Origin: Deltaproteobacteria bacterium
GTDB taxonomy: Bacteria > Desulfobacterota > Desulfuromonadia > Geobacterales > Pseudopelobacteraceae
NCBI GenBank assembly: GCA_021780495.1
Contig: JAJXYO010000062.1
Coordinates: 86,302-118,301 of the forward strand
DNA length: 32,000 nucleotides
Direction: 5' to 3'
The notes beneath the pieces were generated by a model, which worked only from the letters and a program-made list of their open reading frames with translations, had not been told where the DNA came from and did not search any database. Shown here one piece after another: positions 88 to 18,278 of this stretch. The translations under genes and the position numbers were made by a program. Numbering within the stretch: position 1 is the first letter of the stretch; each line of letters opens with the position of its first letter.

Positions 88-1359
88 TCATTCAGGGCTC
101 ACAATATCTTTATTAACATCCCATTTTCTTCGTACGGGACTGGTATGCCGATACGTTCCATCGGCCTTCTCTTTCTCGATGACCTTGAGAAACAGTTTAG
201 CCATTTTCAAGTTCTGACTGCTGTCGCTGTAGAATCTGTCCCACGCGTAATAATAAAGATCCTGCAGTTTGGAAGGACTCATCTTTGCCGGTTGGTAAAC
301 GACTTCACCGCCGGTATAGCGATTCCAGTCATTGGATAGAATCCTGCCCTGCTGCGCAAGGGTCTCGCGGATCGGCGTGTGAGGAAACGGGGTCAGGATC
401 GTGAATTCCGCAAGATCCAGATTGATCTCAAGCAGGAAATCGACCAGTCGTTTGATGTCATCCTCACTCTGGTCATCGGTACCCAGAATTATCGTCCCCT
501 CGACTCCAATGCCGCGTTCCTGTAAACGCTTTACCCGTTTGCGAATGTGATCCGAAGTGTCGAAGATCGCCTGATATACATACCAGCAACCGGCCTCGGC
601 AGCCAGGTCAAGGATTTCATCGTCGTCTTTGATCGGGTGGCACACCCATTTCTTCTTAAGTGGAATCAGCGCCTTAAACAGATCCTTCTCCCATTGGTCG
701 TTCTGGGACATGGAATTATCAACAAAGAACAGACGGTTGTTATTTATTGACTCAATTTCACGCAGTACATCATCGATCGGGCGCGGCCTGAATTCGTTGC
801 CGCCGAGAAACGGCGTACAACACGGAAAGCAGTTGAACCGGCAGCCACGCGAAGCATGGATCAGGTCAACCATCTGTACCCCGCGATAGTTATATAACTC
901 GCGATTAAGAATCCCGCGTCTGGCGGGTCCAACCAGATTGATGTCCGGGAAATTGTTCTTATAGTCGTATACCTTGAGCAAATTACCGTTGTTCAGGTCT
1001 GTAATAATTTGCCCGAAACGTCCTTCGGCCTCTCCCAGAAACACTGAATCAGCATGCCGCATGGTTTCTTCGGCATGGAGTTGCGTACCGATGCCACCAA
1101 AGATCACCGGGATTCCTTTGGCACGATAGATGTCGGCGATCTCCCAGCCGCGCGCAATCTGGCAGGTAAGCATGCAGGAGATTGCCACAAGGTCGGCATG
1201 CTCGTCAAAATTGATCGCTTCAACATGTTCGTCGGTAAAGATGAGCTCAATATCGCCAGGCACCGTAGCTGCGAAACAGACCGGGCCATGGGGCGGGAGA
1301 TGAAAATCCGTCTGTCGCTGCAGTTTCGGCCATTTCGGGTAAATTAGTTTTATCTTCAC
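88..1359 (-). CDS. B12-binding-domain radical SAM enzyme (class B rSAM), last visible gene of the lipid operon
   Basis: 423-aa ORF. The N-terminus (MKIKLIYPKW...IPVIFGG) looks like a B12-binding domain. rSAM cluster motif CRFNCFPC (CX3CX2C). The GTG start overlaps the upstream stop as GTGA (1356-1359). Confidence 0.85.
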   Translation of the reverse strand: MKIKLIYPKWPKLQRQTDFHLPPHGPVCFAATVPGDIELIFTDEHVEAINFDEHADLVAISCMLTCQIARGWEIADIYRAKGIPVIFGGIGTQLHAEETMRHADSVFLGEAEGRFGQIITDLNNGNLLKVYDYKNNFPDINLVGPARRGILNRELYNYRGVQMVDLIHASRGCRFNCFPCCTPFLGGNEFRPRPIDDVLREIESINNNRLFFVDNSMSQNDQWEKDLFKALIPLKKKWVCHPIKDDDEILDLAAEAGCWYVYQAIFDTSDHIRKRVKRLQERGIGVEGTIILGTDDQSEDDIKRLVDFLLEINLDLAEFTILTPFPHTPIRETLAQQGRILSNDWNRYTGGEVVYQPAKMSPSKLQDLYYYAWDRFYSDSSQNLKMAKLFLKVIEKEKADGTYRHTSPVRRKWDVNKDIVSPE

Positions 1360-2030
1360 GCGATACCTTTCTTAATCTTCAGGATTGAAAGCTGACGTAG
1401 AATTTCTGGTATTCCATGTGTTGATTCCACGATCGACCGGGCCTCAATGAGGCTACAGAAAGCATTGCCTTCCTGTTTGCCATCAATAACGAAATACAGG
1501 GCTTCATCTTCCACTATGTTGCCTACGAGCATCCGGCCTGTTTCACCGGCAACAATCATCTCGACCGACATATCAAAAAACTCTGCAAACGAGCCATCCA
1601 GCGCCGTCGCATATAAAAGAGGACCAATCAAACCGAAGTGGATGGCCGCTTCACCCAGCGCACTCGAAGGGAGCGTATAGATGAACAGGTTTGCCCGTGA
1701 AAGCGTGCGACCGTTTTCTACATAATCCTTGAAATAGTCAATGTCCGATTTCAGGGAGCCTTCACGGCTTGTACCGATAATCCCGATGTCCTGCTTGCAT
1801 GCAGATGAGTACTCCACGCCGGCATCCTGCAGGGCAAGGGCAACAGCACTGACAGTCTTCCGCGACATTCCGTCAAGTCGCCCGAAATTCTTGAACGGCT
1901 GCGAAAATATTCCCAATTTCGCAAGAGAGTGAATCCCCTCCCCCTGGGCAAACTGATGTTGCAGCCCGAGCCTGACAGACCCGTAACCTGTGCTTGTCAC
2001 CCACCCTATGCCACGTACTGAAATCATCAT
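1356..2030 (-). CDS. Half-size ketosynthase-like protein lacking the active-site Cys (chain-length-factor / ApeC-like KS partner)
   Basis: The ORF track gives 1356..2084. I prefer the ATG at 2030 (MMISVRGIGWV...), which lies 10 nt after the upstream KS stop and gives a KS-like N-terminus. The protein is about 224 aa. The position where a KS carries its catalytic Cys reads YTLPSSALGEAA. There is no His-His C-terminal half. Confidence 0.7.
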   Translation of the reverse strand: MMISVRGIGWVTSTGYGSVRLGLQHQFAQGEGIHSLAKLGIFSQPFKNFGRLDGMSRKTVSAVALALQDAGVEYSSACKQDIGIIGTSREGSLKSDIDYFKDYVENGRTLSRANLFIYTLPSSALGEAAIHFGLIGPLLYATALDGSFAEFFDMSVEMIVAGETGRMLVGNIVEDEALYFVIDGKQEGNAFCSLIEARSIVESTHGIPEILRQLSILKIKKGIA

Positions 2031-2040
2031 CGAAGCTTTC

Positions 2041-3162
2041 TCAGGCCAGAACCAAAGCAGAGTTAATGCCACTGAAACCGGCATTGGTCACGAGAGCTAT
2101 CGCGTTCGGTTCGACAACCCGGCGGTGATCTGATACCCAAGCGATCGCATCATCATCAGCATCTTTCAGATTTACGGTTGGCGGAACGACGTTCTCACGT
2201 CGAGCCCGCTGCGCAATTGCCATTTCGACCAGACCGGCGGCACCCATCGTGTGGCCGATACCGCCTTTGATGGAATAGACCGGCACATTCCGGCCCCGGA
2301 ATACCGCGCGGAAAGCCCGCATTTCCATGGCATCGTTATACGGGGTACCGGTGCCGTGTGCCGAAACAAAGCCGACGCGATCAGCAGAAATACCCGCAGA
2401 GTCCAGGGCGGCGTTGATGGCGCGAACCAACCCTTCGCTTTCGCGGGAGGGACCGGTCATGTGGTTGGCATCATCGCTCATGCCCCAACCGGCAATTTCT
2501 CCTGTGATGGGCCTTTTTTCACGCAGAGCACGTTCTTCGCTCATGACGAGCAGATATGCGGCAGCTTCTCCGACACTTAGTCCGGCCCTGTTCTTATCAA
2601 AAGGCCGGGCCGGGACCTTATCCAGCGCCATGAGCGAAGAAAAACCTGAAAATACAAACTCCGACACACAATCACAGGCTACTACCAGCACACAATCAGC
2701 ATGTCCACTGCGAATGGTTGCCGCTGCACGCGCAGCCGCAGCCGACGACGAGGTGCATGCCGCCGACACAACCAGGCCACCGCCCGTGGTTCCGGTGAGG
2801 TTAATGACCTTTTTGAGTAGATTGCTAAGAGAGCTTTCAGCACCATCGCCAGTTCCGGTAATGATGCTTTTCTCCAGAAGATCGATTTCTCCCTTGGTTG
2901 TCGCCAGCAGAAGTTTTGCATCAGTCGGTATCTTTGTACCGGTTCTGGCAAACAGCTGGGAAATCATCTGCATGACCAGAGACATTTCGCCGTGATACGT
3001 CAAACCAGGAATTGTTCCGGCATAGTCGGAGAATAACGCCTTCGTACTGAATCGGGTCAGGCGGGAAATTGCGGTCCGGTTGGCCAGAAGTCCATCCCAG
3101 CATGCGTCGATACCCGGACCGAATGGGGTCAGGATATCCGTTTCAACGATAACCGCCCTCAT
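2041..3162 (-). CDS. Beta-ketoacyl-ACP synthase (elongating KS, ApeO-like)
   Basis: Catalytic triad motifs are present: SAACTSS (Cys), SAHGTGTPYND (His), GHTMGAAG (His). The ORF track start at 3192 is GTG. The ATG at 3162 forms an ATGA overlap with the upstream stop (3159-3162) and gives MRAVIVETDILTPFG. Confidence 0.9.
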   Translation of the reverse strand: MRAVIVETDILTPFGPGIDACWDGLLANRTAISRLTRFSTKALFSDYAGTIPGLTYHGEMSLVMQMISQLFARTGTKIPTDAKLLLATTKGEIDLLEKSIITGTGDGAESSLSNLLKKVINLTGTTGGGLVVSAACTSSSAAAARAAATIRSGHADCVLVVACDCVSEFVFSGFSSLMALDKVPARPFDKNRAGLSVGEAAAYLLVMSEERALREKRPITGEIAGWGMSDDANHMTGPSRESEGLVRAINAALDSAGISADRVGFVSAHGTGTPYNDAMEMRAFRAVFRGRNVPVYSIKGGIGHTMGAAGLVEMAIAQRARRENVVPPTVNLKDADDDAIAWVSDHRRVVEPNAIALVTNAGFSGINSALVLA

Positions 3163-3644
3163 GGGCAACAAAGGAATTCTCCGGCTTTCCACCTGCTGCG
3201 GCAGCGATCAAGCATCACCGGCGAGAGCATGCAGGGTTCTCCTGTTCGGTGATCCGTAAAAAGCTGAATGGTGTAGCCGCTTGTTGCCAGGCTGCCATCC
3301 TGTTTGTAAACGTGGAATTCGGTGTTTATCCGCGCGCCCTCGTGCCAGACCATGGAAGCCCGGATGGTGAATTCCTCCGCCAGAAAGAGAGACTGAAAAT
3401 AATCTATATGGAGTGAGATGATGGGGGCTCTCAAACCGGCTTCAAGATACTCATTATATGACATCCCGCAGCGTCGGCCGAGTTCTTCAGACGCCTCCTC
3501 GAACAGGAGCGGATAGCGGCCATGCCACATGATAGCCATAGGATCGGCCTCATTGAAGCGAACGCGACGTTTGACCTCGACGAAGATCGGTTCCGGCGCT
3601 CCGGGAACCGGATCAAAGTACGTTTTTTTCCGCTTGATCTTCAT
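3159..3644 (-). CDS. Hotdog-fold acyl-CoA/acyl-ACP thioesterase (4HBT/YbgC-like, ApeK-like)
   Basis: 161-aa ORF. YbgC-type N-terminal signature VRFNEADPMAIMWHGRYPLLFEEA. ATGA overlap with the upstream gene at 3641-3644. Confidence 0.8.
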   Translation of the reverse strand: MKIKRKKTYFDPVPGAPEPIFVEVKRRVRFNEADPMAIMWHGRYPLLFEEASEELGRRCGMSYNEYLEAGLRAPIISLHIDYFQSLFLAEEFTIRASMVWHEGARINTEFHVYKQDGSLATSGYTIQLFTDHRTGEPCMLSPVMLDRCRSRWKAGEFLCCP

Positions 3645-4021
3645 ATCGCATCACCCAGGGCAACACGCAGTTTCAGATCAGACACCTTTTCTTCTCCCTT
3701 AGTAACACGAACCTTACAGGTAAATTCATTGCCGGCATCCGCAACGCTACTCACGGTACAAATCAGGTGATCTCCAGGCAAAACGGGCGCTACGTACTTG
3801 GCCAGTACTATTTCTTTTAGAAAAACGCGCTGCTGCAGACCTTGCCTGAGTGTTGAAATTGCACACTGAATCTGGCATGCCCCCGGCAGAACCATCTTAG
3901 TCGGGAAATGTCCCTGAAAACCGATAAACTCGGGCGGAAAGGTGAAACTCGATGTCATAACAGAGTCAGTCCGCGTTGGTCCATCCATGTAGCGCTCAAT
4001 ATCCGCTTGTACCTTGCTCAT
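3641..4021 (-). CDS. FabZ/FabA-like 3-hydroxyacyl-ACP dehydratase (hotdog, ApeP-like)
   Basis: 126 aa. Catalytic-His motif FQGHFPTKMVLPGACQIQ. ATGA overlap at 4018-4021. Confidence 0.8.
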   Translation of the reverse strand: MSKVQADIERYMDGPTRTDSVMTSSFTFPPEFIGFQGHFPTKMVLPGACQIQCAISTLRQGLQQRVFLKEIVLAKYVAPVLPGDHLICTVSSVADAGNEFTCKVRVTKGEEKVSDLKLRVALGDAI

Positions 4022-4683
4022 GAATACAACTCCTTTTGCCGGACCGTCAGTTGGTAACCATACTTGTAATTAATCATGATAATCCCTTGAGGATAATGTT
4101 TCCCATTCTGCTCACGATATTCATAGTAGGATACCCGCCACACGATTTCATTGTTCTCATAATAAACCTTCTCGACAAGATCCCGCCCTTTCCCGGCAAA
4201 TTCATATTCCATTTCACCGGAACCGTACGGTTGCCAAAAATTTACCTTGTATTTACTCTTCCAGGTACGTGCTCTGTCTGACGGGATCAGATCAAAATAG
4301 ATTCTGCGGATGTCGGTGCCAACCGCTTTCGGAAGGTCACCGTACTGCATGAGGGCGGGCAGTGCATTCTGGGTAACAATGGTATCCCTGTCGCCAGACA
4401 GTTCAAACAACTGGACACCCAATGGGTTAAGACAGACCACTTTAAATTGATTATTCTGACGGTTTATGTCGATGTAGCCGATCCCCATAAAGGATTTCCA
4501 GGAATACTCAAATACGACAGAATTGAGGACTTGGAAGCGTTCCGGGGTGTGAGCTTTAAATTGCGCCACGACACTTTTGGGCTCGACAGATTCAAAGGAT
4601 ACACGTTCAGCTTTCTGAAACGGAATGTGGGTACACCCGGCAGACAATATAATCAGCATCAACAGGGCAACAAATTTGATCAT
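4018..4683 (-). CDS. Lipoprotein of unknown function (LolB-/DUF3261-like position in Ape-type clusters)
   Basis: 221 aa. Signal peptide with lipobox MIKFVALLMLIILSAGC. The ATG directly abuts the MMPL stop (TAG|ATG, 4681-4686). The family assignment rests on cluster position only. Confidence 0.75.
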   Translation of the reverse strand: MIKFVALLMLIILSAGCTHIPFQKAERVSFESVEPKSVVAQFKAHTPERFQVLNSVVFEYSWKSFMGIGYIDINRQNNQFKVVCLNPLGVQLFELSGDRDTIVTQNALPALMQYGDLPKAVGTDIRRIYFDLIPSDRARTWKSKYKVNFWQPYGSGEMEYEFAGKGRDLVEKVYYENNEIVWRVSYYEYREQNGKHYPQGIIMINYKYGYQLTVRQKELYS

Positions 4684-7101
4684 CTATCGGTTTTCCTCTG
4701 TATCAATCAGACTGCACAGAGGTGGAACCACCAATATGGCAGAGAGATATCCGGTAATTATGCAGATAAACATGGCGACTCCGGTAGAGTGGAGTGCGGG
4801 ATGCTTTGCAAACAGAAGCGCACCGGTGCCGATGACATTGGTTATTGCCGAAATAGTCACGGCGATGATGGTCCCGGTACGCAATCTGTGGCGGTATTGA
4901 TAGGTGATCCCCAAGCCATAATCCACGATAACTCCGGTCGAGACGATGGAAGCCACAATATTTATGACGTTCAAGGGAATCTTCAGAAATGACATAATCC
5001 CGACAAACCAGACAATTCCGGTGACCAGCGGTACCAGGGCAATCAGGGTATACTTCCAATCGCCAAAAAACAGCCACGCCAGCACCACATTAAATAGAAA
5101 CGCAAGCGGCGCCAGAATTCTGATCTCCTTGGCTGTAAATGAGGAGATCGAGGCAGACATGGCCTTTCCCGATACGACGAATGTGCCGGGATACTTTTTC
5201 GTGATTTCTGTCAATGAATCAATATAGTTCTGTTCATCCGGAAAGTACGAAAGAATACGGTATTCTCCGTTTTTGCTCAACACAAATCTTTCCTGCAGTT
5301 GAGCTATAAGGCCGTTGGAACCGGCGTTTTCTGCTTGATGACGATAGAGGCCATCGAAAAATGGAGAAAAAGCGCTATCAGAAAATTGATACGCCGCAGA
5401 CGTTTCGCGAATCAGCTTTTTAAGCTCAAGCTCTTTTCCTTGTCTCCAAAAACTGTCCCAATGTGCACTGTTTTCCTTCCGCAGCCGTTCAGAAGGCCAA
5501 AACTGCGCAAGGCTCGTAAATTCACCTTTTTCAACAAGGTTATGTGCAGCATGAAACACAGCGTCGTTAACTTCCATGGCATCTTCGAGGCTTTTTCCCG
5601 TTACCACGAAAATTGCCTGACTGGTTTTGCCACCCCACACATTGTGAAACCTCTGTTCGGCGCGCAGAACTCCCGGATCGCTACCGTCAAGTTTTTTGAC
5701 ATCGCTGTCAAATGTGACAGATAAAGCGCTATACAATGCCAGACAAAACAGCACACCCCATACGCCGATGCAGGTCTTGACCGGCCAGCGAATCGTCGTG
5801 AGCTTGTCATCGATACTGGAGTCTGTTACAGGAATGACCTTCATGTGTGAAAGGACGATGGGAAGAACAAAGAGAGCTATCATCAGACAGATGAACACGC
5901 AGAGGGCAGAGAAAAGTGCGAGCTGGTGATACCCCTGAATTTTCGAAAAAAACAAGACCAGAAAACTGAACATGGTAGTTGTAGCGCTGACCGTAATCAA
6001 TCGTGATAGTTTCACAAACTGCGTGCTATCGACTCCGCGCTTCAATGCAATAAACATGTGCAAGCCATAGTCAACCGAAAAGCCTGCGATTGCAGTACCG
6101 AGTCCGATTACCATATACAGCAGTTTCCCTTCAATGGCTGAGGCCAGTACAATTGACCATACGATAGCAATAAAGGGGATAATAAAGATAAAAAGCACGC
6201 GAAGGTCACGAAATACCATCAGGAACAGCAAAAGAAATGTCACGGAAGCTATGGTAGAAACTATTGATATGTCACGTTTGATCACGCGCTCATTACTGAC
6301 CGTATGCAGATGACCACAGATAATATCGGCCGACACGTATCCCGGCAGCTCTTTAATATGGCCCTGCAGCGCAGCAATGAGTTCTTTGCTGCGTGGGCTA
6401 TCCATCATTGCAACGGAAGTTTGCAGTATCATCAAGGCATGACGACCGTCACGACTGATAAAATGCCCATCCTCAATAGCAACGTCGTATCCCATGGACG
6501 CGGGGAGTGCCCGCATCTTTTCAAGGAGTAGCATCTTGATTCCCAGTGGATCGGCACGGGACAACGACGAAGTGAATACACTTTCCGGGCGCATGGACTG
6601 CAGATAGATACCCCGCATTTTCTGGGATACCGTTTTGCTATTGATAAGACCGTTTATGGCTTCCAGATCCTGCCTTCCAAGCACCTGCGGCGCGTAGTGG
6701 AGAACTGAGAATTCATCCATGACATTCGCAACGGAAAAGCCGGAAACCACCTTCATAAAAAGCGGCGGGGTGAGGGATGCGGATAACTGATCTACGGCGA
6801 GGAAGAGGTCTTTTTTAGTTTTGGCAGGGTCTGTCAATGCAATGGAAACTATAACCTTATCCGAAAAGCTGGAGCCCCTCAGAAAATCCATGCTCCGGGC
6901 AATTTCCTTGTCCGGCGGCAACATCAGGTCGATATTGCCCTCGAAGTGCGTAAAAAACAGGGCTGAGCCAGCAAGCGCCGTGATCAGCAGAACAAACGCT
7001 AAAACCAGTTTTGTATGCTTGCGTACGATCGTCTGAAACAGCAAGAAAACTTTTTCAAACACGCCCTTTAACCTCAAATTGTTTACTGGTAAGTGGCGCA
7101 T
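4684..7101 (-). CDS. MMPL/RND-superfamily membrane exporter (ApeM-like)
   Basis: 805 aa. Two blocks of about 5-6 hydrophobic helices are separated by large soluble loops, as in MMPL/RND transporters. The ATG at 7101 overlaps the upstream gene by 47 nt. An alternative GTG at 7062 would give an 8-nt overlap. Confidence 0.85.
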   Translation of the reverse strand: MRHLPVNNLRLKGVFEKVFLLFQTIVRKHTKLVLAFVLLITALAGSALFFTHFEGNIDLMLPPDKEIARSMDFLRGSSFSDKVIVSIALTDPAKTKKDLFLAVDQLSASLTPPLFMKVVSGFSVANVMDEFSVLHYAPQVLGRQDLEAINGLINSKTVSQKMRGIYLQSMRPESVFTSSLSRADPLGIKMLLLEKMRALPASMGYDVAIEDGHFISRDGRHALMILQTSVAMMDSPRSKELIAALQGHIKELPGYVSADIICGHLHTVSNERVIKRDISIVSTIASVTFLLLFLMVFRDLRVLFIFIIPFIAIVWSIVLASAIEGKLLYMVIGLGTAIAGFSVDYGLHMFIALKRGVDSTQFVKLSRLITVSATTTMFSFLVLFFSKIQGYHQLALFSALCVFICLMIALFVLPIVLSHMKVIPVTDSSIDDKLTTIRWPVKTCIGVWGVLFCLALYSALSVTFDSDVKKLDGSDPGVLRAEQRFHNVWGGKTSQAIFVVTGKSLEDAMEVNDAVFHAAHNLVEKGEFTSLAQFWPSERLRKENSAHWDSFWRQGKELELKKLIRETSAAYQFSDSAFSPFFDGLYRHQAENAGSNGLIAQLQERFVLSKNGEYRILSYFPDEQNYIDSLTEITKKYPGTFVVSGKAMSASISSFTAKEIRILAPLAFLFNVVLAWLFFGDWKYTLIALVPLVTGIVWFVGIMSFLKIPLNVINIVASIVSTGVIVDYGLGITYQYRHRLRTGTIIAVTISAITNVIGTGALLFAKHPALHSTGVAMFICIITGYLSAILVVPPLCSLIDTEENR

Positions 7102-11278: not shown

Positions 11279-11280
11279 CG

Positions 11281-11547
11281 CTATACGTTCTTTGTGCCTT
11301 CCTCGTTCTTGATTGAGGAAATGAATTGATAGAGATCCTGAAGCGTTCTAATGTCCCGGACCTTTTCCTCGTTCCTGATCTTTACACCGAAACTGCTTTG
11401 AAGTGCGACAATCAAGTCAACGATATCAAGACTATCGAGACCTAAATCAACGAAAATATTAGCGTCCGGCACCAGACGTTCTTTCTCGATTTCAAATGAC
11501 TCCTCAAAGACTTTGTTCGTCTTTTCAATGATCTCTTGCCCAGTCAT
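11281..11547 (-). CDS. Acyl carrier protein
   Basis: 88 aa, acidic. Phosphopantetheine attachment motif DLGLDSLDIVDL. Its own strong Shine-Dalgarno GGAGGA lies upstream (revcomp of about 11551-11556). Confidence 0.9.
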   Translation of the reverse strand: MTGQEIIEKTNKVFEESFEIEKERLVPDANIFVDLGLDSLDIVDLIVALQSSFGVKIRNEEKVRDIRTLQDLYQFISSIKNEEGTKNV

Positions 11548-11573
11548 GTATCCTCCAGAAAAATAATTCAGAA

Positions 11574-12800
11574 CTATATTTTTTTACATACCAGTGCAGC
11601 GTTGATTCCGCCAAAGGCAAAACCATTTTTCAGCACTGTGTTCACCTGTTTCTTCAACGGATGCATCACGTGCTGAATCCCTTCACAATCCTGACTGACA
11701 TTCTCGAGGTTGAGCGTCGGATAGATCATGCCCGTCTCCATCATTTTGAGGGAGGCAGCCAGTTCAATTGCACCTGCAGCACCGAGTGTGTGCCCAATGT
11801 TCCCTTTCAGACAACTCACCGGAACCAATGCACCAAAAATTTCACGAATCGCTTCGGCCTCTTCCTGGTCTCCCTGGAGAGTAGCCGTGGCATGGGCATT
11901 AATATAATCAATCTCTTCCGGTTTCACTCCGGAATCAGCAAGCGCCTGCCGTATACACATGACCATGGATTCCTTGTTTGACTGGCTGACATGGATACCA
12001 CTTGCAGTTGTACTAAAACCCGTTATCTCGGCATAGATTGTAGCATTTCGCTTGACTGCTCTTTCATATTCCTCCAGGACGAGGATTCCGCTTCCTTCGC
12101 CGCACACCAACCCATCCCTGTCCCTGTCGAATGGACGAGGGGTTTTCCCGGGATTGTCGTTGAATTTGGTGGATGTTGCAAAAAGAATGTCAAATGAGCC
12201 CGTCACGGTTGGGTGCAGCTCTTCGGCGCCTCCGCAGAGGAGGATGTCCTGACGTCCCAACCGGATCAGATCATAACCAATACCAATGGCATGCAACGCC
12301 GATGCGCAGGCAGCTGAAGCGGCCATGATCGTCCCGGTAAGTCCCAAGTACTGGGCAACATTAACCGTAGCGGTATGCGACATGCATTGAAAGAACATGG
12401 TGGAATTCAGTTTACTCAAATCCTTGTCGGGAAGCATTGTTTCAAAGACATCATTGATGCTCTTGGCACTTCCCATAGTCGAACCGACTACACAGCCGAC
12501 CCGCCATAGATCTTCATCAGCAAGCATAATGCCGGCATCGGCCAGTGCTTCGTCAGCAGCCTGGGCGGCGAAGATACTCATGCGTCCCATGGAACGTCTC
12601 TTCTGACGCGGGATGCTCATTTCACCTTGCATTGTTACAGGCGCGCCGACCAGACTCTGCAGGCCGTTGTACTGATCCCACCCTTCCATGAAGCGGACAG
12701 CGCTGCGCCCTTCTTCGATTCCTTTCATCAGTGCCGGGACGCCGTTACCAAAGGGGGAAACGACACCAATTCCAGTAATCACAACTCGTTTTAATGACAT
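11574..12800 (-). CDS. Beta-ketoacyl-ACP synthase II-like (FabF family; ApeR-like)
   Basis: 408 aa. Cys motif AASAACASALHA and His motifs NAHATAT and GHTLGAAG. The start overlaps the upstream stop by 10 nt (ATGTCATTAA, 12791-12800). Confidence 0.9.
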   Translation of the reverse strand: MSLKRVVITGIGVVSPFGNGVPALMKGIEEGRSAVRFMEGWDQYNGLQSLVGAPVTMQGEMSIPRQKRRSMGRMSIFAAQAADEALADAGIMLADEDLWRVGCVVGSTMGSAKSINDVFETMLPDKDLSKLNSTMFFQCMSHTATVNVAQYLGLTGTIMAASAACASALHAIGIGYDLIRLGRQDILLCGGAEELHPTVTGSFDILFATSTKFNDNPGKTPRPFDRDRDGLVCGEGSGILVLEEYERAVKRNATIYAEITGFSTTASGIHVSQSNKESMVMCIRQALADSGVKPEEIDYINAHATATLQGDQEEAEAIREIFGALVPVSCLKGNIGHTLGAAGAIELAASLKMMETGMIYPTLNLENVSQDCEGIQHVMHPLKKQVNTVLKNGFAFGGINAALVCKKI

Positions 12801-14293
12801 AATGTTCCGTCCAGGATTTTTCCGTAGTGCTCTTTTCCAACAATAGCGCGGCCAACAATAAGCGACGACATCATGGCTCCGATTATCCCGGGTAAGAGTG
12901 AACTCTGCCCGGCTGCAAAAAGGTTATGCAGAGGAAGCTTGCCGATGAGATTGAACTGCCCCATTTTCTGTTTGACACCATACGCACTACCATCTGGGCT
13001 GCAGAGGTAATCCTTGAACGTAAGCATTGATCCCGCATCGATAAAATCCAGTGTTTCTCGAAATTCAGGAAAAACGCTGAACAGGTGCTCCTTGATCGCC
13101 TCGACCCGATTGTGTTTATACGTCAGATATTCTTCCGGCCTGTTCCCTCTTTTGGAATCAATCCAGTTAGAAACATGTTCGCCAAACGAAGGCTCAACAA
13201 TACAGATACCTTTTCCTGTACCGCCATTACCCAGATTGGGTGATTTTACAACCACCAGGGCGGGTACTCCATTATAGGCTGGATCCAGCAGATTATTTAC
13301 ATCGGCATCCGGAAAAATGGATACGATTGATGCATCAGGATTTTGATCAATGCTACCCGGCTTGAATGTGGCAAACGCCGAGAAAAGGCCCAGGGAAGGT
13401 TCAAATGCTGAAATCCGATGCGCAAACGCCTTGCTGTAATTTTTCTCAGGAAGAAGCCCCAAAATATCCTTGGGATGGATTGTGAAGACACAGGCATCAG
13501 ACAGAACCTCTTCCCCGGTATTCAGGACAAAACGGCCAACCTTGTTGTCACGGATATCAGCCAGTTCCGTAATATACGTACTGCAGCTGATATCAATATC
13601 ATAATCCTTGAATTTCTCCGTGAACGCCCTCACAAAAGCATCGCCACCATCTTTCACGAAGGCGATGGATTCATAGAAGCTGAGAACCATCCTGCTGTGG
13701 TTTGCAAATGAGATTTCATCCGGCCGAACCCCATAACACATGGCATATCCGGAAAACAGACCTCGCAAAAGTTCATTAGGGGTCAACTTCCGCAAAACCG
13801 TGTCGAGTGAGATATAATCTTCTTCCAGATTTGGCGGGCCTATCGCGTTTTCACGAAGATTGAGTGAAGGAGTCCGGTTACAGACCGATTGGACCTTCTC
13901 GAAATACCGGTCAATGGCCGAGGTTTCTGCGGGAAAGTACCCCTTGAAAGAATTCTTTATATTCTCAATCCCACAGGGATGCTCGAACCTTTTACCATGC
14001 GATTCGAAGATAAATTGATTTTGAGATGAATTGGGTAGAAAGATTGGCTCAATGGAATCTCTCAGTCCAAGCAGAGTTAATATATCGGAAAGGATTCCAC
14101 CTTCATGAAAACCGCCCGTAAAATGAAAACCGGTATCAAACGGGATTCCTCTTTTATTGAAACGGGTAAGTGAACCTCCAATAATCGGGGACTTCTCGAT
14201 AAGCAAAACTTTATTACCGCTCATGGCCAGCAAAAGCGACATCGTTAACCCACTGATGCCGCTTCCCACTACAATGTGATCATATTTTTTCAT
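12791..14293 (-). CDS. FAD-dependent oxidoreductase, phytoene-desaturase (CrtI)/amine-oxidase-like
   Basis: Dinucleotide-binding fold YDHIVVGSGISGLTMSLLLAMSGNKVLLIEK at the N-terminus. About 500 aa, matching CrtI-like size. The ORF track start at 14338 is TTG. The ATG at 14293 (MKKYDHIVVGSG) fits a Rossmann N-terminus, with GGAG 13 nt upstream. Confidence 0.8.
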   Translation of the reverse strand: MKKYDHIVVGSGISGLTMSLLLAMSGNKVLLIEKSPIIGGSLTRFNKRGIPFDTGFHFTGGFHEGGILSDILTLLGLRDSIEPIFLPNSSQNQFIFESHGKRFEHPCGIENIKNSFKGYFPAETSAIDRYFEKVQSVCNRTPSLNLRENAIGPPNLEEDYISLDTVLRKLTPNELLRGLFSGYAMCYGVRPDEISFANHSRMVLSFYESIAFVKDGGDAFVRAFTEKFKDYDIDISCSTYITELADIRDNKVGRFVLNTGEEVLSDACVFTIHPKDILGLLPEKNYSKAFAHRISAFEPSLGLFSAFATFKPGSIDQNPDASIVSIFPDADVNNLLDPAYNGVPALVVVKSPNLGNGGTGKGICIVEPSFGEHVSNWIDSKRGNRPEEYLTYKHNRVEAIKEHLFSVFPEFRETLDFIDAGSMLTFKDYLCSPDGSAYGVKQKMGQFNLIGKLPLHNLFAAGQSSLLPGIIGAMMSSLIVGRAIVGKEHYGKILDGTLCH

Positions 14294-14343
14294 TCTGGAC
14301 AACCAACTCCTCAAAAACACATCGTATCGGATTTTCAATCACG

Positions 14344-15063
14344 CTACATCGCCAACCCGCCATTAATTCCGATTACCTGACCATGGATATACATATGCTC
14401 TTCGGTACAAAGAAAATTAACGACAGAAGCAACATCTTCAACACTGCCGACACGGTTGAGCGGGATCAAGGGCAGAACCATCTCCGTGGGGATTTCGGTG
14501 GTCATTTCAGTTTCAATGAATCCGGGGGCCACCACGTTCACCAAAATCTTTTTCTTGCCAACCTCACGTGCCAGGGCTTTGGCAGCACCGATCAAACCAG
14601 CCTTGGAGGCAGAGTAATTAACCTGGCCCGCCTGTCCGATCTGACCTGAAGTCGAAGATACGACGACGATACGCCCCCGCTTTGCCTTCAACATGGCGAA
14701 AACAACCGCACGGGTAACGTTAAAAAAACCGTCCAGATTCGTCGATATAACCGAACTCCACTCGTCCTTGGTCATCCACATCAGGAGGTTATCGCGGGCA
14801 ATGCCGGAATTATAGACCAGAACATCGGGGGATACTGTTTCCAAGCGGACGCCTAATGCCGCCTCGGTTTCCTCGAAACTGGAGACATCAAAAGGGATAA
14901 GGTCACAGGTGCTTCCGGCAGCCTCTATCTCTGATTTTGCCGAAAGTGCCGCGTCATGATTGCCTTTGTATGTCAACCAGATTGCAAAACCGGACTTTGC
15001 CAACCTGATTGCAACTGCGCGACCTATCCCGCGACTGCCTCCAATTATTAAAGCAATTTTCAT
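14344..15063 (-). CDS. fabG: 3-oxoacyl-ACP reductase (SDR, FabG/ApeQ-like); first gene of the operon
   Basis: SDR motifs GGSRGIGRA (cofactor binding), NSGI and YSASKAG (YxxxK). ATG codons lie at 15069 and 15063. The latter has better spacing from GGATAGG and gives MKIALIIGGS. Confidence 0.9.
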   Translation of the reverse strand: MKIALIIGGSRGIGRAVAIRLAKSGFAIWLTYKGNHDAALSAKSEIEAAGSTCDLIPFDVSSFEETEAALGVRLETVSPDVLVYNSGIARDNLLMWMTKDEWSSVISTNLDGFFNVTRAVVFAMLKAKRGRIVVVSSTSGQIGQAGQVNYSASKAGLIGAAKALAREVGKKKILVNVVAPGFIETEMTTEIPTEMVLPLIPLNRVGSVEDVASVVNFLCTEEHMYIHGQVIGINGGLAM

Positions 15064-15149
15064 AATCATGCCTATCCAAATACATTTTCCCAGCTAGTCC
15101 GCCACAGTGAGTCACAACCTCTAACGGCAAGTAACATATTAATTTATGG

Positions 15150-15229: not shown

Positions 15230-15261
15230 ATTGATTAATAGTGCCGGGTCCCGCAAGGAAT

Positions 15262-16860
15262 ATGGATAGACTAAGAATATTTTTGCATGATATGTTGACG
15301 GCTCAAATTAAATGGAAAGAATTGCCTTGGCGAGCACCCAAAGGACAATCCTGCGACATCTATAGACCAACGCCACAAAATATCATTCTCCGAGGCACGG
15401 CTCAATTGAACCAATCAAAGAAAATACTTTTCGTCCACCCGCTCGGTGAAAACTGGATACCAGGCGAACAAAATGTTGCCCGTGTCGTAAACATCATGGC
15501 ACCGCTGGGTCTCCTCTCACTGGCTGCCTGGTTGGATACCTACGGGCATCAGACGAAAATTCACGACTGTTATGCGTTTCCGGGAGATGATGATAAGATT
15601 TACTCCTATCTGAGGGAAGAACGCCCGGATTTCATAGGGTTTTCCACAACAACCTCCAGTTTCCTTGATGGTATCCGTCTGGCAACCAAGGCTAAGGAAA
15701 TTCTGCCCTCGGTACAGGTTGTGTTTGGCGGCGTCCATATTTCGGCGGTGCGCGATCAGCTTCTGGGAGACTTTCCTGTCATCGATTTTGGGGTTGTCGG
15801 TGAAGGTGAAGAGGTTTTACGGGAACTGATTGAATCGAACGGAGTAGGCTTGCGCAACATTGCAGGACTCATCTTTCGCGAGCAGGACAATGTTGTCTTT
15901 AACGGCTTTCGAAAAGAACTGATCGATATGGACACACTCCCCTTTCCTGCGTATGAAAAATTGCAGGATTTTCCCGGCAGTTACTGTCTCCCTATTTTCA
16001 GTTATCCCAAGGCACCTAACACCACTGTCATCACAAGCAGAGGCTGCCCCTATACCTGTTCCTATTGTGATCGCTCAGTCTTCCAGCGAACGTATCGCTA
16101 CAATTCACCTGAGTATATGATGAAGTATCTTACCTATCTCCAGCAACGCTTCAATATTAAGCATGTGAATATCTACGACGACACCTTCACTCTGCATCGA
16201 CAGCGGGTAATGGAATTCTGTGAACTCAAGATACGGTCCGGTTTGAAGATGACCTTTAATTGCGCTGCCCGTACCGAGCAACTCGATGGCAGCATGCTCG
16301 AGGCGCTGAAAAAGGCCGGCTGCTGGATGATCAGTATCGGCATCGAAACGGGTGATCCTGACCTGCTGAAAAAGCATCGCTCCTATATATCAAACAAAGA
16401 AATGGACAATCCGCTGGAAAATATCCGCAAGACTGTCCATCTGATCAAGAAATCAGGCATCCGTGTCAAGGGCCTGTTCATGCTGGGGCTACCCGGTGAA
16501 ACCGAGAGAAGTATTGAAACAAGTATGGCGTATGTATTCAGCCTCCCATTAGATGAGTTCAATCTGTCGAAACTGACCCCCTTCCCCGGGGCACCCATGT
16601 ACGGTGATATCCACAACCATGGCACATTCGACGAGAACTGGGGCATAATGAATGCGGCTAATTTCACCTTCATTCCGACGGGGTTTACCAAAGAACTGCT
16701 GGAAGAAAGACACCTCGAATTTTATCGCCGATATTTCTCAAGACCGAAGGTATTGCTGAACTATGCAACCATGATATGGAAATCACCCGACAGCTGGCGG
16801 CGTTTTTGGAAGGATTTGCCGACGTTTCTGAGTTTTACGAGAAAAAACAGAAAAAAGTGA
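15262..16860 (+). CDS. B12-binding-domain radical SAM enzyme (class B rSAM), divergent from the lipid operon
   Basis: The ORF track starts at GTG 15241. I prefer the ATG at 15262, which is preceded by AAGGAA. The B12-binding-like region is KILFVHP...DFIGFSTTTSS...VVFGGVHIS. The rSAM motif is SRGCPYTCSYCD. Confidence 0.85.
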   Translation: MDRLRIFLHDMLTAQIKWKELPWRAPKGQSCDIYRPTPQNIILRGTAQLNQSKKILFVHPLGENWIPGEQNVARVVNIMAPLGLLSLAAWLDTYGHQTKIHDCYAFPGDDDKIYSYLREERPDFIGFSTTTSSFLDGIRLATKAKEILPSVQVVFGGVHISAVRDQLLGDFPVIDFGVVGEGEEVLRELIESNGVGLRNIAGLIFREQDNVVFNGFRKELIDMDTLPFPAYEKLQDFPGSYCLPIFSYPKAPNTTVITSRGCPYTCSYCDRSVFQRTYRYNSPEYMMKYLTYLQQRFNIKHVNIYDDTFTLHRQRVMEFCELKIRSGLKMTFNCAARTEQLDGSMLEALKKAGCWMISIGIETGDPDLLKKHRSYISNKEMDNPLENIRKTVHLIKKSGIRVKGLFMLGLPGETERSIETSMAYVFSLPLDEFNLSKLTPFPGAPMYGDIHNHGTFDENWGIMNAANFTFIPTGFTKELLEERHLEFYRRYFSRPKVLLNYATMIWKSPDSWRRFWKDLPTFLSFTRKNRKK

Positions 16861-16904
16861 GGTAAATACTCACGATACATTCAACTTCTGAAGGGTCGTT
16901 ATGC

Positions 16905-18278
16905 CTACTGAGTCACCGCTGGATATCGGTGTCCTCCAGAATGGGACCCCCTCACCAGGTCCACAGACTCATCTTTCAACGCTGCGTCAATAACAGCATC
17001 GCAGACATCTTCAACAAAATAAGCACCATATCGTGTAAGCCGTATTGAGTCGGAATCCTGGGTGATGCACCCAAAATCACTAAGTTTCGCCAGCAACTGT
17101 CCAAAAACATCAAGAGCACATTCACCATACATACCCTGAAAGTGGTTGGTATCAAGTCCACTCTTCAGTTGCAGTCCCAGCATGAGTGTACGGTACATCC
17201 GCTCTCTCTTCGTAAGGGGGATATATCTGCCAATCGGGAGGATCCCTTTACCTATCATTCGGTTATAGGTTGAGAGATCTTCATGTTTGTCGTAGCAGAT
17301 TGTCTTGGTATAGGATCTTGTGCGCGAGCCGAAAGCAATGATAGGCATCTCATTCAACCAATGGTATCGGTAGCCCCACTGTTTGTCGTCGCTGAATCTG
17401 CCGTTTTGTTCATAGCCAAGATTCTCCATCCATTCCTGAGTGATGTACACCATTTCAAAAAGGGTATCATCCTCAACGATAAGATCAGGCCGGGCCTTAT
17501 ACAGTTTGACGACAAGCGGGTTAACAATTTCGTGCCTGATATATTCAACCGCATTCGGACGTATTTTTTCCAGAATCTCAAGATCCGTCCTCACACTTGC
17601 GATAGTCTGGCCAGGAAGTCCAGTCATCATGTCAATATTGATAGCTAAGCCATGCTTCTGCGCGGTCGTGACAATTTGTTGTATCTGGGCTGGGGTGTTA
17701 CTTCTGTTACAGTGGATGAGAATTTCAGGATCGAATGTTTGACAGCCGATACTGATTCTGTTGATGCCTATTTCAGCCAGTTCTGCTATCCGTTTTTCAC
17801 TGCTGATCGTTAAGGGATGGGCTTCAGAGGTAATATTACAATTCTCAGACAGTTCGATCGACGATCTGATTTTATCGATTACAAGCTTGAGATCACCGTT
17901 AGAAAAAGAGGTCGGCGTCCCTCCCCCGAAGTAGATGCATTTAGCCTTTTTGCCCTCAAAAAGACCATATTCCGAAAAAAACTCAATTTCCTTAAGCAAA
18001 TGTTGTAGATAATTCTGCTGGATTTCCTTATCTACTTTGAGCGGGAATGAATTACAAAAAAAGCACTCTGAAAAGCAGAATGGAAGATGGAAATAGAGAA
18101 GGATTTCTTGCTCGTCCTTGATGCTTTCTTTCAGAGTCTCGACAAATGAATCAACCTGTGAAGGGGCAAGCATCTTGAAATGATGGGGAACGAAAAGATC
18201 TGGCTGGTTTTTGGTGTAATTGGACGAACCATAGAATAATTCATTTCTGATTTTGCTCAGAGTTGCAGTAAGTTCCAT
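16905..18278 (-). CDS. HemN-family radical SAM enzyme, not a canonical coproporphyrinogen dehydrogenase (HemN-like methyl/methylene-transferase class candidate)
   Basis: 457 aa. HLPFCFSECFFCNSF (CX3CX2C, but no fourth Cys at +2) and YFGGGTPTSF. There is a HemN-type C-terminal domain region. It is convergent with 15262-16860. Confidence 0.8.
   Translation of the reverse strand: MELTATLSKIRNELFYGSSNYTKNQPDLFVPHHFKMLAPSQVDSFVETLKESIKDEQEILLYFHLPFCFSECFFCNSFPLKVDKEIQQNYLQHLLKEIEFFSEYGLFEGKKAKCIYFGGGTPTSFSNGDLKLVIDKIRSSIELSENCNITSEAHPLTISSEKRIAELAEIGINRISIGCQTFDPEILIHCNRSNTPAQIQQIVTTAQKHGLAINIDMMTGLPGQTIASVRTDLEILEKIRPNAVEYIRHEIVNPLVVKLYKARPDLIVEDDTLFEMVYITQEWMENLGYEQNGRFSDDKQWGYRYHWLNEMPIIAFGSRTRSYTKTICYDKHEDLSTYNRMIGKGILPIGRYIPLTKRERMYRTLMLGLQLKSGLDTNHFQGMYGECALDVFGQLLAKLSDFGCITQDSDSIRLTRYGAYFVEDVCDAVIDAALKDESVDLVRGSHSGGHRYPAVTQ

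Follow-up and report, generated by a model that had tools for sequence, protein, structure and literature searches.

What might be assembled by an operon that joins the gene set of aryl polyene biosynthesis to several radical SAM (rSAM) enzymes? The window analysed here, a stretch of 32,000 nucleotides from a Geobacteraceae MAG, contains all 15 co-directional minus-strand ORFs described for positions 88-15069 by an initial annotation. Adjacent ORFs overlap or lie no more than 26 bases apart, as would be expected of a single operon. Its predicted continuation to the left of the window was confirmed: the full operon has about 27 genes in about 29 kb, with genes 1-15 and the start of gene 16 inside the window. 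The remainder encodes, besides a TIGR04072 "ladderane-type" B12 rSAM and a class I methyltransferase, a GT2/DUF2062 glycosyltransferase and an LpxL-like acyltransferase. A second KS/CLF pair, a second ligase and two more ACPs also lie there, as do a deacetylase, a condensation-like protein and a further FAD oxidoreductase. Clusters of this family have been noticed since 2009, yet none has been characterised or has a known product. We consider it probable that the operon encodes a pathway of the aryl polyene lipid (APE/APEL) type that permanently carries three rSAMs and a CrtI/CRTISO-like flavoprotein, in which an ACP-bound polyene would be remodelled by the rSAMs before its export to the outer membrane.

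The chain-building genes provide the scaffold of this proposal. Searches with Pfam and NCBIfam models reproduced all gene content and domain calls of the initial annotation. The first gene of the operon (14344-15069, minus strand, as are all operon genes below) encodes a FabG/FlxB-like ketoreductase (KR) in the ApeQ position (PF00106, 170 bits), with a YSASK motif and a FlxB model score of 288 bits against a cutoff of 340. A full-size ketosynthase in the ApeR position (KS_R, 11574-12800; PF00109, 133 bits; PF02801, 108 bits; PRK09116, 437.8 bits against a cutoff of 470) retains the Cys-His-His residues. It precedes an acyl carrier protein with a DSL motif (11281-11547; PF00550), an ApeJ-like acyltransferase of the PlsC family (10523-11278; PF01553 at 5.6e-19; HX4D motif HRSASD) and a PaaK/FlxY-type adenylating ligase in the ApeH position (9222-10526), the presumed loader of the starter unit, which matches the FlxY model NF053551 over its full length (467.7 bits, cutoff 520). 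Farther along lie a 4HBT/YbgC-type thioesterase in the ApeK position (3159-3644; PF13279 at 6.5e-15, PF03061) and the ketosynthase KS_O in the ApeO position (2041-3192, alternative start 3162; PF00109, PF02801), which also has Cys-His-His intact and carries the motifs AACTSS, SAHGTGT and GIGHTMG. Its partner, a half-size KS-like protein of 242 residues (1356-2084, alternative start 2030), matches PF00109 in its N-terminal part only (26 bits), has the catalytic Cys replaced by Ser in LPSSALGEA, and resembles the ApeC-type chain-length factor; it follows KS_O in 36 of 46 loci. Note that, among solved ketosynthases, KS_O scores higher with amxFabF2 of B. fulgida (155 bits) and with FabF (147 bits) than with ApeO (6qsp_A; 116 bits, 2e-32), an observation that runs against an APE-type reading.

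The dehydratase is split, as in APE clusters. One half is a free ApeI-like hotdog protein of 126 residues (3641-4021; PF22818, 28.4 bits against a cutoff of 28.5) that bears the His motif GHFP, as FQGHFP, and finds its top PDB match in 6qsr_A, from the X. doucetiae ApeI:P complex. The other half belongs to a fusion protein (7738-9225; Pfam Radical_SAM and SPASM) in which residues 1-345 form an rSAM and SPASM twin-cluster domain and residues 350-495 an ApeP-type hotdog half. The fused dehydratase had been assigned to the ApeI type; it is instead of the ApeP type (PF22817, ApeP-like). In Foldseek comparisons of an AF2 model of the fusion (pLDDT 88.7), the N-terminal region matched SkfB, SuiB, PqqE and anSME, and the C-terminal region matched ApeP (6qsr_B; TM 0.80, E 2.5e-10). 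Glu408 and Gln412 are invariant, and 64 fused orthologues were recovered among species-representative genomes. Some distant fusion homologues lack CxxxCxxC, and the rSAM half is therefore perhaps not catalytic everywhere. The motif is intact in all four rSAMs of the window.

Three export genes separate the two halves: a LolA-like periplasmic carrier in the ApeL position (7055-7738; PF03548 at 7.7e-18; LolA2_flexi, 113 bits against a cutoff of 125), an MMPL/HAE3 RND transporter in the ApeM position (4684-7101; PF03176; TIGR00921, 83 bits; HpnN-like, 81 bits) and a DUF3261/LolB-like lipoprotein in the ApeN position (4018-4683; PF11659 at 1.1e-7; lipobox LSAGC). The proposed Ape-type type II PKS/FAS core with LolA/MMPL export is thus supported, DUF3261 included. 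Overall, 15 of 18 Ape roles (ApeB-ApeR, with ApeE/ApeF counted as one ACP) have a homologue in the window or in the rest of the operon. APE/APEL clusters (apeA-R of E. coli CFT073 and Xenorhabdus doucetiae), whose product structure and gene roles have been described (10.1101/2020.12.19.423268), share with the operon the ketosynthase with its Cys-less partner, the second ketosynthase, the FabG-type ketoreductase, the split ApeI:ApeP dehydratase and ACPs. They also share the PaaK-type ligase, the 4HBT thioesterase, PlsC and LpxL-type acyltransferases, GT2/DUF2062, the class I methyltransferase and the LolA-MMPL-DUF3261 series. The methyltransferase and glycosyltransferase had been reported missing, which holds within the window but is an artefact of its edge, since the operon encodes both farther on. 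Unlike APE/APEL clusters, the operon has ApeP fused to an rSAM-SPASM enzyme and adds two B12-rSAMs, the CrtI/CRTISO-like flavoprotein, the FAD oxidoreductase, a second ligase, a second KS/CLF pair, a third ACP, the deacetylase and the condensation-like protein. Furthermore, its hosts are strict anaerobes that belong to neither Proteobacteria nor Bacteroidota, and the curated flexirubin and Ape models score just under their cutoffs, none reaching it. Flexirubin and xanthomonadin clusters supply the closest curated NCBIfam models for the ligase (FlxY), KR (FlxB) and LolA (LolA2_flexi); here, by contrast, rSAM genes are present, and no tyrosine ammonia-lyase, dialkylresorcinol genes or recognised halogenase were found.

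Two B12-domain enzymes complete the rSAM complement of the core. B12rSAM_A (88-1359; 423 residues; Pfam B12-binding, 33.9 bits; Radical_SAM, 32.7 bits; motif CRFNCFPC) matches no NCBIfam family at or above cutoff. It and KR are the most conserved proteins of the cluster, and its identity of about 64-95% (median 73%, minimum 65%) in every related locus argues for strong selection. B12rSAM_B, only 26% identical to it, is a fifth rSAM gene that the initial annotation did not list; it starts at 91 and runs past the left edge, leaving its first 30 codons in the window (1-91; MKVLLISANVTLSPYPIYPLGV). The full gene, located at 11269-12639 of locus L001 on the identical ENA contig, encodes 456 residues; with 614 bits (cutoff 360), its product belongs to TIGR04072 (rSAM_ladder_B12, "lipid biosynthesis B12-binding/radical SAM protein"). 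Its closest characterised relatives are TsrM (119 bits; top solved relative, 6wte, 1.7e-33) and BzaD (model, 202 bits), both class B (cobalamin) rSAM C-methyltransferases. At Glu273 and Glu236, which we take to be the residues that make TsrM non-radical, B12rSAM_B differs in having Val and Tyr, respectively, and a TsrM-style non-radical enzyme was rejected on that account. A 2026 review files the "ladderane" rSAM group under other or unknown transformations (PMC12931638).

The taxonomic distribution of the cluster shows which of these genes belong together. The gene order from KR to GT2, namely KR-CrtI-KS-ACP-AT-ligase-[rSAM-SPASM-ApeP]-LolA-MMPL-DUF3261-ApeI-TE-KS-CLF-B12rSAM_A-B12rSAM_B-GT2, is kept in 64 species-representative genomes of Geobacterales, Nitrospirota, Omnitrophota, Planctomycetota and the PVC lineages Verrucomicrobiota/Kiritimatiellia/Lentisphaerota, including the cultured Victivallis vadensis. 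Each gene of the block is present in 75-98% of the loci that cover its position, and the hosts of the operon family are strict anaerobes from at least five named lineages. Three rSAMs are conserved: the SPASM-ApeP fusion, B12rSAM_A (88-1359) and the off-window TIGR04072 enzyme. The claim that the rSAM and CrtI-like genes are co-conserved with the Ape-like core consequently holds for these three and the flavoenzyme, which are co-inherited with that core, and fails for two other rSAM genes of the window, discussed below. These patterns bear on whether the operon is an ordinary aryl polyene cluster in which the rSAMs are passengers or act on the head group only (e.g., by ring C-methylation), the product being a classical APE lipid. 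The coverage of Ape roles, class I methyltransferase and glycosyltransferase included, would fit such a product, as would the methylation of aromatic sp2 carbons by TsrM and BzaD (PMC12931638). However, three rSAMs and a flavoprotein occupy fixed operon positions in at least five named lineages, and one rSAM is fused to the chain-building dehydratase; both features are unexpected for passengers and for pure head-group tailoring alike, and classical APE clusters as described (10.1101/2020.12.19.423268) have no rSAM genes. We therefore regard this explanation as rather unlikely.

The CrtI/CRTISO-like FAD protein (12791-14338, with the true start likely the ATG at 14293; PF13450, PF01593) matches a carotenoid isomerase model over its full length (60.7 bits) and scores 43.6 bits with crtI_fam (cutoff 238); its gene was found in 43 of 52 loci. 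This co-conservation would also suit the anaerobic pathway to PUFAs or hydrocarbons proposed by Rattray et al., in which an acyl chain built by FAS-like enzymes is desaturated without O2 by the CrtI-like flavoprotein and rSAMs to yield a membrane PUFA or hydrocarbon instead of an anchored pigment. Desulfotalea psychrophila, which carries a related cluster, is reported to have polyunsaturated hydrocarbons, not pigments, as its unusual lipids (PMC2649909), a point against the APE/APEL-type pathway, and the nearest families of the rSAM-SPASM enzyme include AhbD and NirJ, which convert propionate side chains to vinyl groups or remove them. The Desulfotalea/Desulfobulbales-type cluster shares the rSAM-SPASM enzyme (54-59% identity over residues 1-345), a B12-rSAM, KS, acyltransferases, GT2 and the CrtI-like gene. 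In these loci (L070-L083), however, the enzyme lacks the hotdog fusion, and the cluster is a smaller variant without the colinear Ape block. Moreover, the operon has the complete Ape machinery for anchoring and export (GT2/DUF2062, acyltransferases of two types, LolA, MMPL, DUF3261), which bulk membrane PUFAs do not need, and KS-KR-DH cycles without an enoyl reductase give conjugated polyenes with no need of a desaturase. A PUFA or hydrocarbon product is accordingly improbable.

A tie to ladderane candidates and to deltaproteobacteria had been pointed out in the initial annotation, correctly so (PMC2649909; TIGR04072; KS_O versus amxFabF2). Could the operon then direct the synthesis of fused-cyclobutane ladderane lipids outside anammox bacteria? 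The TIGR04072 membership of B12rSAM_B points that way, as does the top PDB match of KS_O (9s5h_B, 1.8e-44, residues 11-382), the amxFabF2 of B. fulgida from anammox Cluster I; a phytoene-desaturase homologue, an ACP and a KS/CLF pair occur in the operon as in Cluster I. Anammox candidate clusters (K. stuttgartiensis Cluster I, kuste3603-3608, and kuste3335-3352; B. fulgida amxFabF2/amxFabFmut) share the TIGR04072 B12-rSAM family, the phytoene-desaturase homologue, the KS/CLF heterodimer logic and a dedicated ACP, and kuste3335-3352 adds methyltransferases, a glycosyltransferase, a phenylacetyl-CoA-ligase-like enzyme and a deacetylase-like protein. When the anammox homologues were expressed heterologously, nothing was obtained (PMC4790861), which also counts against the APE/APEL-type pathway. 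Against a ladderane product, the host here is a Geobacteraceae MAG, the CLF is half-size, unlike amxFabFmut, the gene order differs from the kuste order given in PMC4790861, and the operon carries the whole Ape set for export and anchoring. Export to the outer membrane is encoded, whereas ladderanes are reported from the intracellular anammoxosome membrane. Ladderanes have been found in anammox bacteria only and were not detected in Desulfotalea (PMC2649909), and the relatives of the Planctomycetota fusion copy include no named anammox genus. A ladderane product is highly improbable.

Under the preferred APE/APEL-type pathway with rSAM remodelling, a carboxylic-acid starter, probably aromatic by analogy, would be activated by the FlxY/PaaK-type ligase and loaded on an ACP. 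"Aryl" is an assumption, because the operon contains no starter-supply gene (ammonia-lyase or chorismate lyase). The chain would be extended through KS-KR-DH cycles by KS_O with its Cys-less partner, KS_R, the FabG-type KR and the split dehydratase, composed of an ApeI-like His half and an ApeP-like Glu half; the gene set is observed, and its chemistry is extrapolated from APE work in X. doucetiae and E. coli. The operon proteins that were scanned include no enoyl reductase, and the expected product is consequently a conjugated polyenoyl-ACP. Given its covalent tether to the ApeP half, the rSAM-SPASM enzyme may work at the dehydratase on an ACP-bound beta-hydroxy, enoyl or polyene intermediate. 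B12rSAM_A, the TIGR04072 enzyme and the flavoprotein may further remodel the chain or head group, plausibly by methylation of sp2 or sp3 carbons or by C-C bond formation; co-inheritance and the fusion are observed. Methylation, cyclopropanation and cyclisation had been put forward in the initial annotation as candidate reactions. The thioesterase, the PlsC and LpxL-type acyltransferases, GT2/DUF2062, the deacetylase, the condensation-like protein and the class I methyltransferase would build a glycolipid-anchored product, with a second acyl chain possibly supplied by the second KS/CLF-ACP set, as in APELs. By homology to ApeL/M/N, LolA, MMPL and the DUF3261 lipoprotein would carry it to the outer membrane, perhaps assisted by a PagL-like barrel.

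The two remaining rSAM genes were part of the proposed set of four, which did not survive comparison, the conserved B12-rSAM partner lying off-window. A divergent BchE/HpnJ-like B12-rSAM (15241-16860, plus strand; Pfam hits; HpnJ, 179 bits against a cutoff of 578) has orthologues adjoining the cluster in only two of 40 loci with sufficient upstream DNA (L012, 55% identity; L061, 46%). A HemN/ChuW-like (class C) rSAM (16905-18278, minus strand; Pfam Radical_SAM, HemN_C; ChuW/HutW, 182 bits against a cutoff of 400) is linked in one of 40 (L025, 65% identity), where it heads a HemN-KS3-KS4 unit; a terminator-like hairpin lies beside it at 16873-16857, and it is possibly its own transcription unit. 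Both are at most strain-level accessories outside the core. A PagL-like outer-membrane beta-barrel gene (18568-19185, plus strand; PF09411 at 1.2e-14), which the initial annotation had missed, is a recurrent accessory of the cluster: homologues flank it in eight other loci of three lineages, and in Omnitrophota the gene opens the operon, directly upstream of KR.

The minus strand carries 15 genes, running from 15069 down to 88, that are all co-directional, as the initial annotation had it; every one was recovered by ORF calling in the window, and neighbouring reading frames either share 1-47 bases or lie at most 26 bases apart. Pfam and NCBIfam scans reproduced every domain assignment made in that annotation. 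The series (all on the minus strand) begins with a FabG/FlxB-like ketoreductase (KR; gene 1, 14344-15069), a CrtI/CRTISO-like FAD protein (gene 2, 12791-14338, likely start at 14293), the full ketosynthase KS_R (gene 3, 11574-12800), an ACP (gene 4, 11281-11547), a PlsC acyltransferase (gene 5, 10523-11278) and a PaaK/FlxY-type ligase (gene 6, 9222-10526). These are followed by a radical SAM (rSAM) enzyme of the SPASM type with a C-terminal hotdog domain (the fusion; gene 7, 7738-9225), LolA (gene 8, 7055-7738), an MMPL/HAE3 transporter (gene 9, 4684-7101) and a DUF3261 lipoprotein (gene 10, 4018-4683). The remaining genes encode a 126-aa hotdog protein (gene 11, 3641-4021), a 4HBT thioesterase (gene 12, 3159-3644), KS_O, the second ketosynthase with Cys-His-His (gene 13, 2041-3192), a 242-aa ketosynthase fragment with Ser in place of the catalytic Cys (CLF; gene 14, 1356-2084) and a B12-domain rSAM (B12rSAM_A; gene 15, 88-1359). 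The translations contain the motifs YSASK, DSL, HRSASD and GSGISG and the lipobox LSAGC, and all four rSAM enzymes of the window carry CxxxCxxC.

The operon does not end with gene 15. A further gene opens on the minus strand at 91-1, starting MKVLLISANVTLSPYPIYPLG..., and these first 30 codons belong to a second B12-dependent rSAM (B12rSAM_B, 456 aa). The proteins of the window match those of a Geobacteraceae MAG with 100% identity, and the rest of the operon was read from identical ENA contigs, where the predicted continuation past the left edge was indeed found. Besides B12rSAM_B, this part encodes a GT2 glycosyltransferase joined to DUF2062, an LpxL-type acyltransferase, a second ACP, a polysaccharide deacetylase, a ketosynthase with a Cys-less partner, a third ACP, a 438-aa protein of no family, an FAD oxidoreductase (410 aa), a FadD-type ligase, a class I SAM methyltransferase and possibly a YceI protein, after which come the unrelated genes PTA, histidine kinase and MutS. 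The whole operon, of 29 kb (ENA contig k141_2205283, about 43.8-68 kb), is twice as long as the window reveals. It had been stated that the window has neither a methyltransferase nor a glycosyltransferase; both are encoded in the off-window part, and their reported absence was an effect of the window edge. The 438-aa protein had no significant match in Pfam, NCBIfam or PDB sequences; a DHRLFDARG motif and a Condensation match at 0.034 suggest a CAT/condensation-type acyltransferase. Homologues of the FAD oxidoreductase form more than 120 clusters at 53% identity or higher. We also noted sub-threshold NCBIfam matches of the ligase at 9222-10526 to the DVU_1553 ligase family and of the terminal methyltransferase (L084, 12638-13363) to the DVU_1556 methyltransferase family, a pairing that may point to a related cassette in Desulfovibrio, as yet uncharacterised.

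Aryl polyene clusters have been described as the biosynthetic gene cluster family that is spread most widely among bacteria, and they make antioxidant lipids of the outer membrane. Of the 18 roles that ape genes encode (ApeB-ApeR, ApeE/ApeF being represented by one ACP), 15 have counterparts in the operon when the downstream genes are included. KS_O followed by the CLF reproduces the ApeO:ApeC arrangement, and KS_O matched ApeO (6qsp_A) at 2e-32 and 116 bits, FabF and amxFabF2 scoring higher. KS_R, the KR, the ACP and the thioesterase correspond to ApeR, ApeQ, the Ape ACP and ApeK, and the LolA, MMPL and DUF3261 genes form a contiguous ApeL/M/N trio (4018-7738). Components for a lipid anchor include PlsC within the window and, on the same contig beyond its left edge, the LpxL-type acyltransferase, GT2/DUF2062 and the methyltransferase. 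The operon proteins that were scanned yielded no enoyl reductase domain.

The two dehydratase halves are matched to ApeI and ApeP, the heterodimer itself being only predicted. The free 126-aa hotdog protein reached 28.4 bits against a cutoff of 28.5 in the ApeI-like family PF22818, with 6qsr_A as its best PDB match. The hotdog domain of the fusion had been called ApeI-type and is instead ApeP-type (PF22817); in an AF2 model of the fusion (pLDDT 88.7), the C-terminus superposes on chain B of 6qsr, the ApeI:P complex of X. doucetiae, with a TM score of 0.80 (E 2.5e-10). The ApeI-like protein bears the GHFP histidine, and the alignment and the AF2 model place an invariant Glu408-x3-Gln412 on the central helix of the ApeP-like domain. 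By analogy with FabZ, this histidine and the Glu/Gln pair would fit the needs of a split active site.

Curated flexirubin models were approached closely and from just below their cutoffs by the ligase (FlxY, 467.7 versus 520 bits), the KR (288 versus 340 bits) and LolA (113 versus 125 bits). The likeness of the ligase to FlxY is the only indication of an aromatic (4-hydroxybenzoate-type) starter and of a putative yellow conjugated aryl polyene product; no starter-supply gene was found in the operon. In the aryl-polyene lipid APEL, GalNAc-phosphate-glycerol carries an aryl polyene together with a conjugated C26:5 acyl chain, and ApeL/M/N export the molecule (10.1101/2020.12.19.423268). This structure provides ready functions for two KS/CLF sets, three ACPs, acyltransferases, a glycosyltransferase and a deacetylase.

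The conservation of the cluster was assessed by scanning one genome per GTDB species with a 10-sequence alignment of the fusion protein, and the 80 loci that resulted were annotated by ORF calling and best BLASTP match to the operon proteins. The fused enzyme was present in 64 of them, in the order KR-CrtI-KS-ACP-AT-ligase-fusion-LolA-MMPL-DUF3261-ApeI-TE-KS-CLF-B12rSAM_A-B12rSAM_B-GT2. This order is carried by Geobacterales and Pelobacter, Nitrospirota/Thermodesulfovibrionia, Omnitrophota, Planctomycetota MAGs, Verrucomicrobiota, Kiritimatiellia and Lentisphaerota, including the cultured Victivallis vadensis DSM 14823 (L068). Individual genes were found in 75-98% of loci in which their expected positions are covered, and second-half genes were co-located and rearranged in six loci (L015, L025, L058, L065, L066 and L069). 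B12rSAM_A and the KR are the most conserved proteins of the cluster; identity of the former is 65-95% everywhere (median 73%), with the highest minimum in the operon, while median identity is 39-45% for MMPL, LolA and CLF. In the Nitrospirae MAGs L017 and L018, the cluster is otherwise colinear, but no FlxY-type ligase was detected in the interval from the acyltransferase to the fusion gene. Distant fusion homologues (P0152, P0158 and P0186 in alignment A1) have lost CxxxCxxC and retain the SPASM cysteines and the hotdog domain.

The other 16 loci, mostly Desulfobulbales and Desulfobacterales MAGs, encode an unfused rSAM-SPASM enzyme with 52-59% identity across about the first 345 residues; the cluster it belongs to is smaller and contains KS, acyltransferases, a B12-rSAM and a CrtI-like gene. 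The unfused clusters of L070-L083, in which the B12-rSAM is BchE-like, probably represent the Desulfotalea-type cluster of Rattray et al.

The initial annotation had further linked four rSAM genes and the CrtI-like gene to the Ape-like core. This stood for the fusion, B12rSAM_A and the CrtI-like gene, which keep their places, as does the off-window B12rSAM_B, and their fixed linkage and order across loci led us to reject chance neighbourhood of the rSAM genes. It failed for the two rSAM genes upstream of the operon, and neighbour counts across loci rejected the four window enzymes as one conserved set. The divergent BchE/HpnJ-like B12-rSAM (15241-16860, plus strand) had adjoining orthologues in 2 of the 40 loci with enough upstream DNA (L012, 55%; L061, 46%) and scored far from family membership (HpnJ, 179 versus 578 bits; BchE, 172 versus 481). 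The HemN/ChuW-like rSAM (16905-18278, minus strand), which has its own terminator-like hairpin in the window, had a single adjoining orthologue (L025, 65%), which is the leading gene of a divergent HemN-KS3-KS4 unit; it too fell below the cutoffs of its relatives (ChuW/HutW, 182 versus 400 bits; HemW, 151 versus 205; HemN, 144 versus 325). Both genes are accessories at best. A PagL-like outer-membrane beta-barrel gene (18568-19185, plus strand) had been missed. It flanks the cluster in eight other loci of three lineages (L035, L037, L043, L060, L064, L078, L080 and L081) and, in three Omnitrophota genomes, is the first gene of the operon, directly upstream of the KR; it may serve export or anchoring as an accessory that has gone unrecognised.

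In non-anammox phyla, clusters of the ladderane type are picked up by routine genome-mining tools. The link drawn in the initial annotation between the present gene set, the ladderane candidates of anammox bacteria and deltaproteobacteria was borne out on three counts. B12rSAM_B belongs to TIGR04072 (rSAM_ladder_B12, lipid biosynthesis B12-binding/radical SAM protein), scoring 614.3 bits against a cutoff of 360, and B12rSAM_A, at 47.8 bits, lies outside the family. The best solved match of KS_O was chain B of 9s5h (1.8e-44, residues 11-382), at 155 bits versus 147 for B. subtilis FabF and 116 for ApeO; 9s5h is the amxFabF2/amxFabFmut heterodimer of Brocadia fulgida (supplementary table of the preprint). 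Finally, Rattray et al. reported that K. stuttgartiensis has FAS clusters in which rSAM enzymes and homologues of phytoene desaturase occur, that D. psychrophila, Geobacter species and Pelobacter carbinolicus have clusters resembling them, and that Desulfotalea contained polyunsaturated hydrocarbons but no ladderanes (PMC2649909). The kuste3335-3352 list comprises a glycosyltransferase, a phytoene-desaturase homologue, methylases, FabZ, ACPs, FabG, two rSAMs, a phenylacetyl-CoA ligase, FabFs and a deacetylase-like protein (PMC4790861); its gene content is like that of the window operon, but the gene order is unlike. The anammox homologues of the CrtI-like protein lack CrtI activity (PMC4790861), and the protein encoded here falls outside crtI_fam (TIGR02734; 43.6 bits versus a cutoff of 238), its best full-length similarity being to carotenoid isomerase (60.7 bits versus 587).

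The host of the locus is a Geobacteraceae MAG and not an anammox bacterium with cyclobutane lipids. Matches to the Planctomycetota copy of the fusion, from a Brocadiaceae-labelled MAG, were Planctomycetota MAGs, with no anammox genus names among them. Literature searches returned no characterised product for the Geobacter, Nitrospirota or PVC cluster. Ladderane biosynthesis itself has neither in vitro activity nor a genetically accessible producer (2026 preprint), and a review files the "ladderane" group of B12-rSAM enzymes under other or unknown transformations (PMC12931638). The locus is a member of an orphan cluster family noticed since 2009 in Geobacter, Pelobacter and Desulfotalea and, relative to characterised systems, a new variant of the aryl-polyene-lipid pathway; cluster anatomy, true extent and conservation pattern are what is added here. 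The initial interpretation was largely correct, with three amendments: which rSAMs belong to the cluster, how far the operon extends, and ApeP for ApeI.

By analogy with aryl polyene biochemistry, a starter would be loaded by the ligase and extended by iterative KS-KR-DH cycles to a conjugated polyenoyl-ACP, and the product would be anchored to a glycolipid and exported via LolA, MMPL and DUF3261. Because it is fused to a dehydratase half, the SPASM enzyme would be expected to act on an intermediate tethered to the ACP. In structure its neighbours are SkfB, SuiB, PqqE, BlsE and anSME, and in sequence AhbD and NirJ. The genes of B12rSAM_A and B12rSAM_B are adjacent, with overlapping reading frames, and their products, only 26% identical, probably act together. 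B12rSAM_A rises barely above the Pfam thresholds for B12-binding and Radical_SAM and belongs to no NCBIfam family; it represents an uncharacterised and strongly constrained enzyme family. The nearest characterised relatives of B12rSAM_B are TsrM and BzaD, both sp2 C-methyltransferases. It has Val and Tyr at the positions of TsrM Glu273 and Glu236, the former of which ligates the unique iron in TsrM, and therefore looks competent for radical chemistry.

A bolder proposal, which we regard as improbable, is that the three co-inherited rSAMs might turn an ACP-bound conjugated polyene into an undescribed carbocyclic or cross-linked lipid scaffold, the SPASM enzyme being docked on the polyene-forming dehydratase and the B12 pair including a ladderane-family enzyme. 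If this were true, this widespread anaerobe operon, which the cultured V. vadensis carries, would give the enzyme set proposed for ladderane synthesis its first model that can be cultured and that may also be amenable to genetics. Apart from this proposal, the family is a sharply conserved, rSAM-bearing pathway of aryl-polyene type in strict anaerobes of at least five named lineages, with one rSAM fused to a chain-forming dehydratase and with B12-rSAM and KS types that are those picked as candidates for ladderane synthesis in anammox bacteria. A homologous cassette in culturable non-anammox bacteria would make the chemistry of these enzymes testable and would probably reveal a new class of outer-membrane lipids; the family is widespread and strongly conserved, and its culturable members bring the enzymes implicated in ladderane synthesis within reach.

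Within the window, an Rfam search at gathering thresholds returned only a tRNA-Met, and no cobalamin or SAM riboswitch was found before the B12-rSAM genes. This tRNA-Met (CAT; 25142-25218, plus strand) was the sole match of either Rfam or ARAGORN. A HemW-like gene (23815-24963, plus strand, 382 aa), the second of the HemN family in the window and 5.5 kb from the HemN/ChuW-like gene, looks like a housekeeping copy. Of two small adjacent ORFs on the minus strand, 22862-23122 matches the C-terminal half of the DUF507 model and 23130-23417 its N-terminal half; they represent either one gene that has been split or two paralogues of half length. Similarly, of the minus-strand ORFs 25347-25841 and 25850-26179, the first matches only the C-terminal half of the TauE/SafE model and the second, just upstream, has no family; a stop codon or frameshift may have broken a single gene into this pair.
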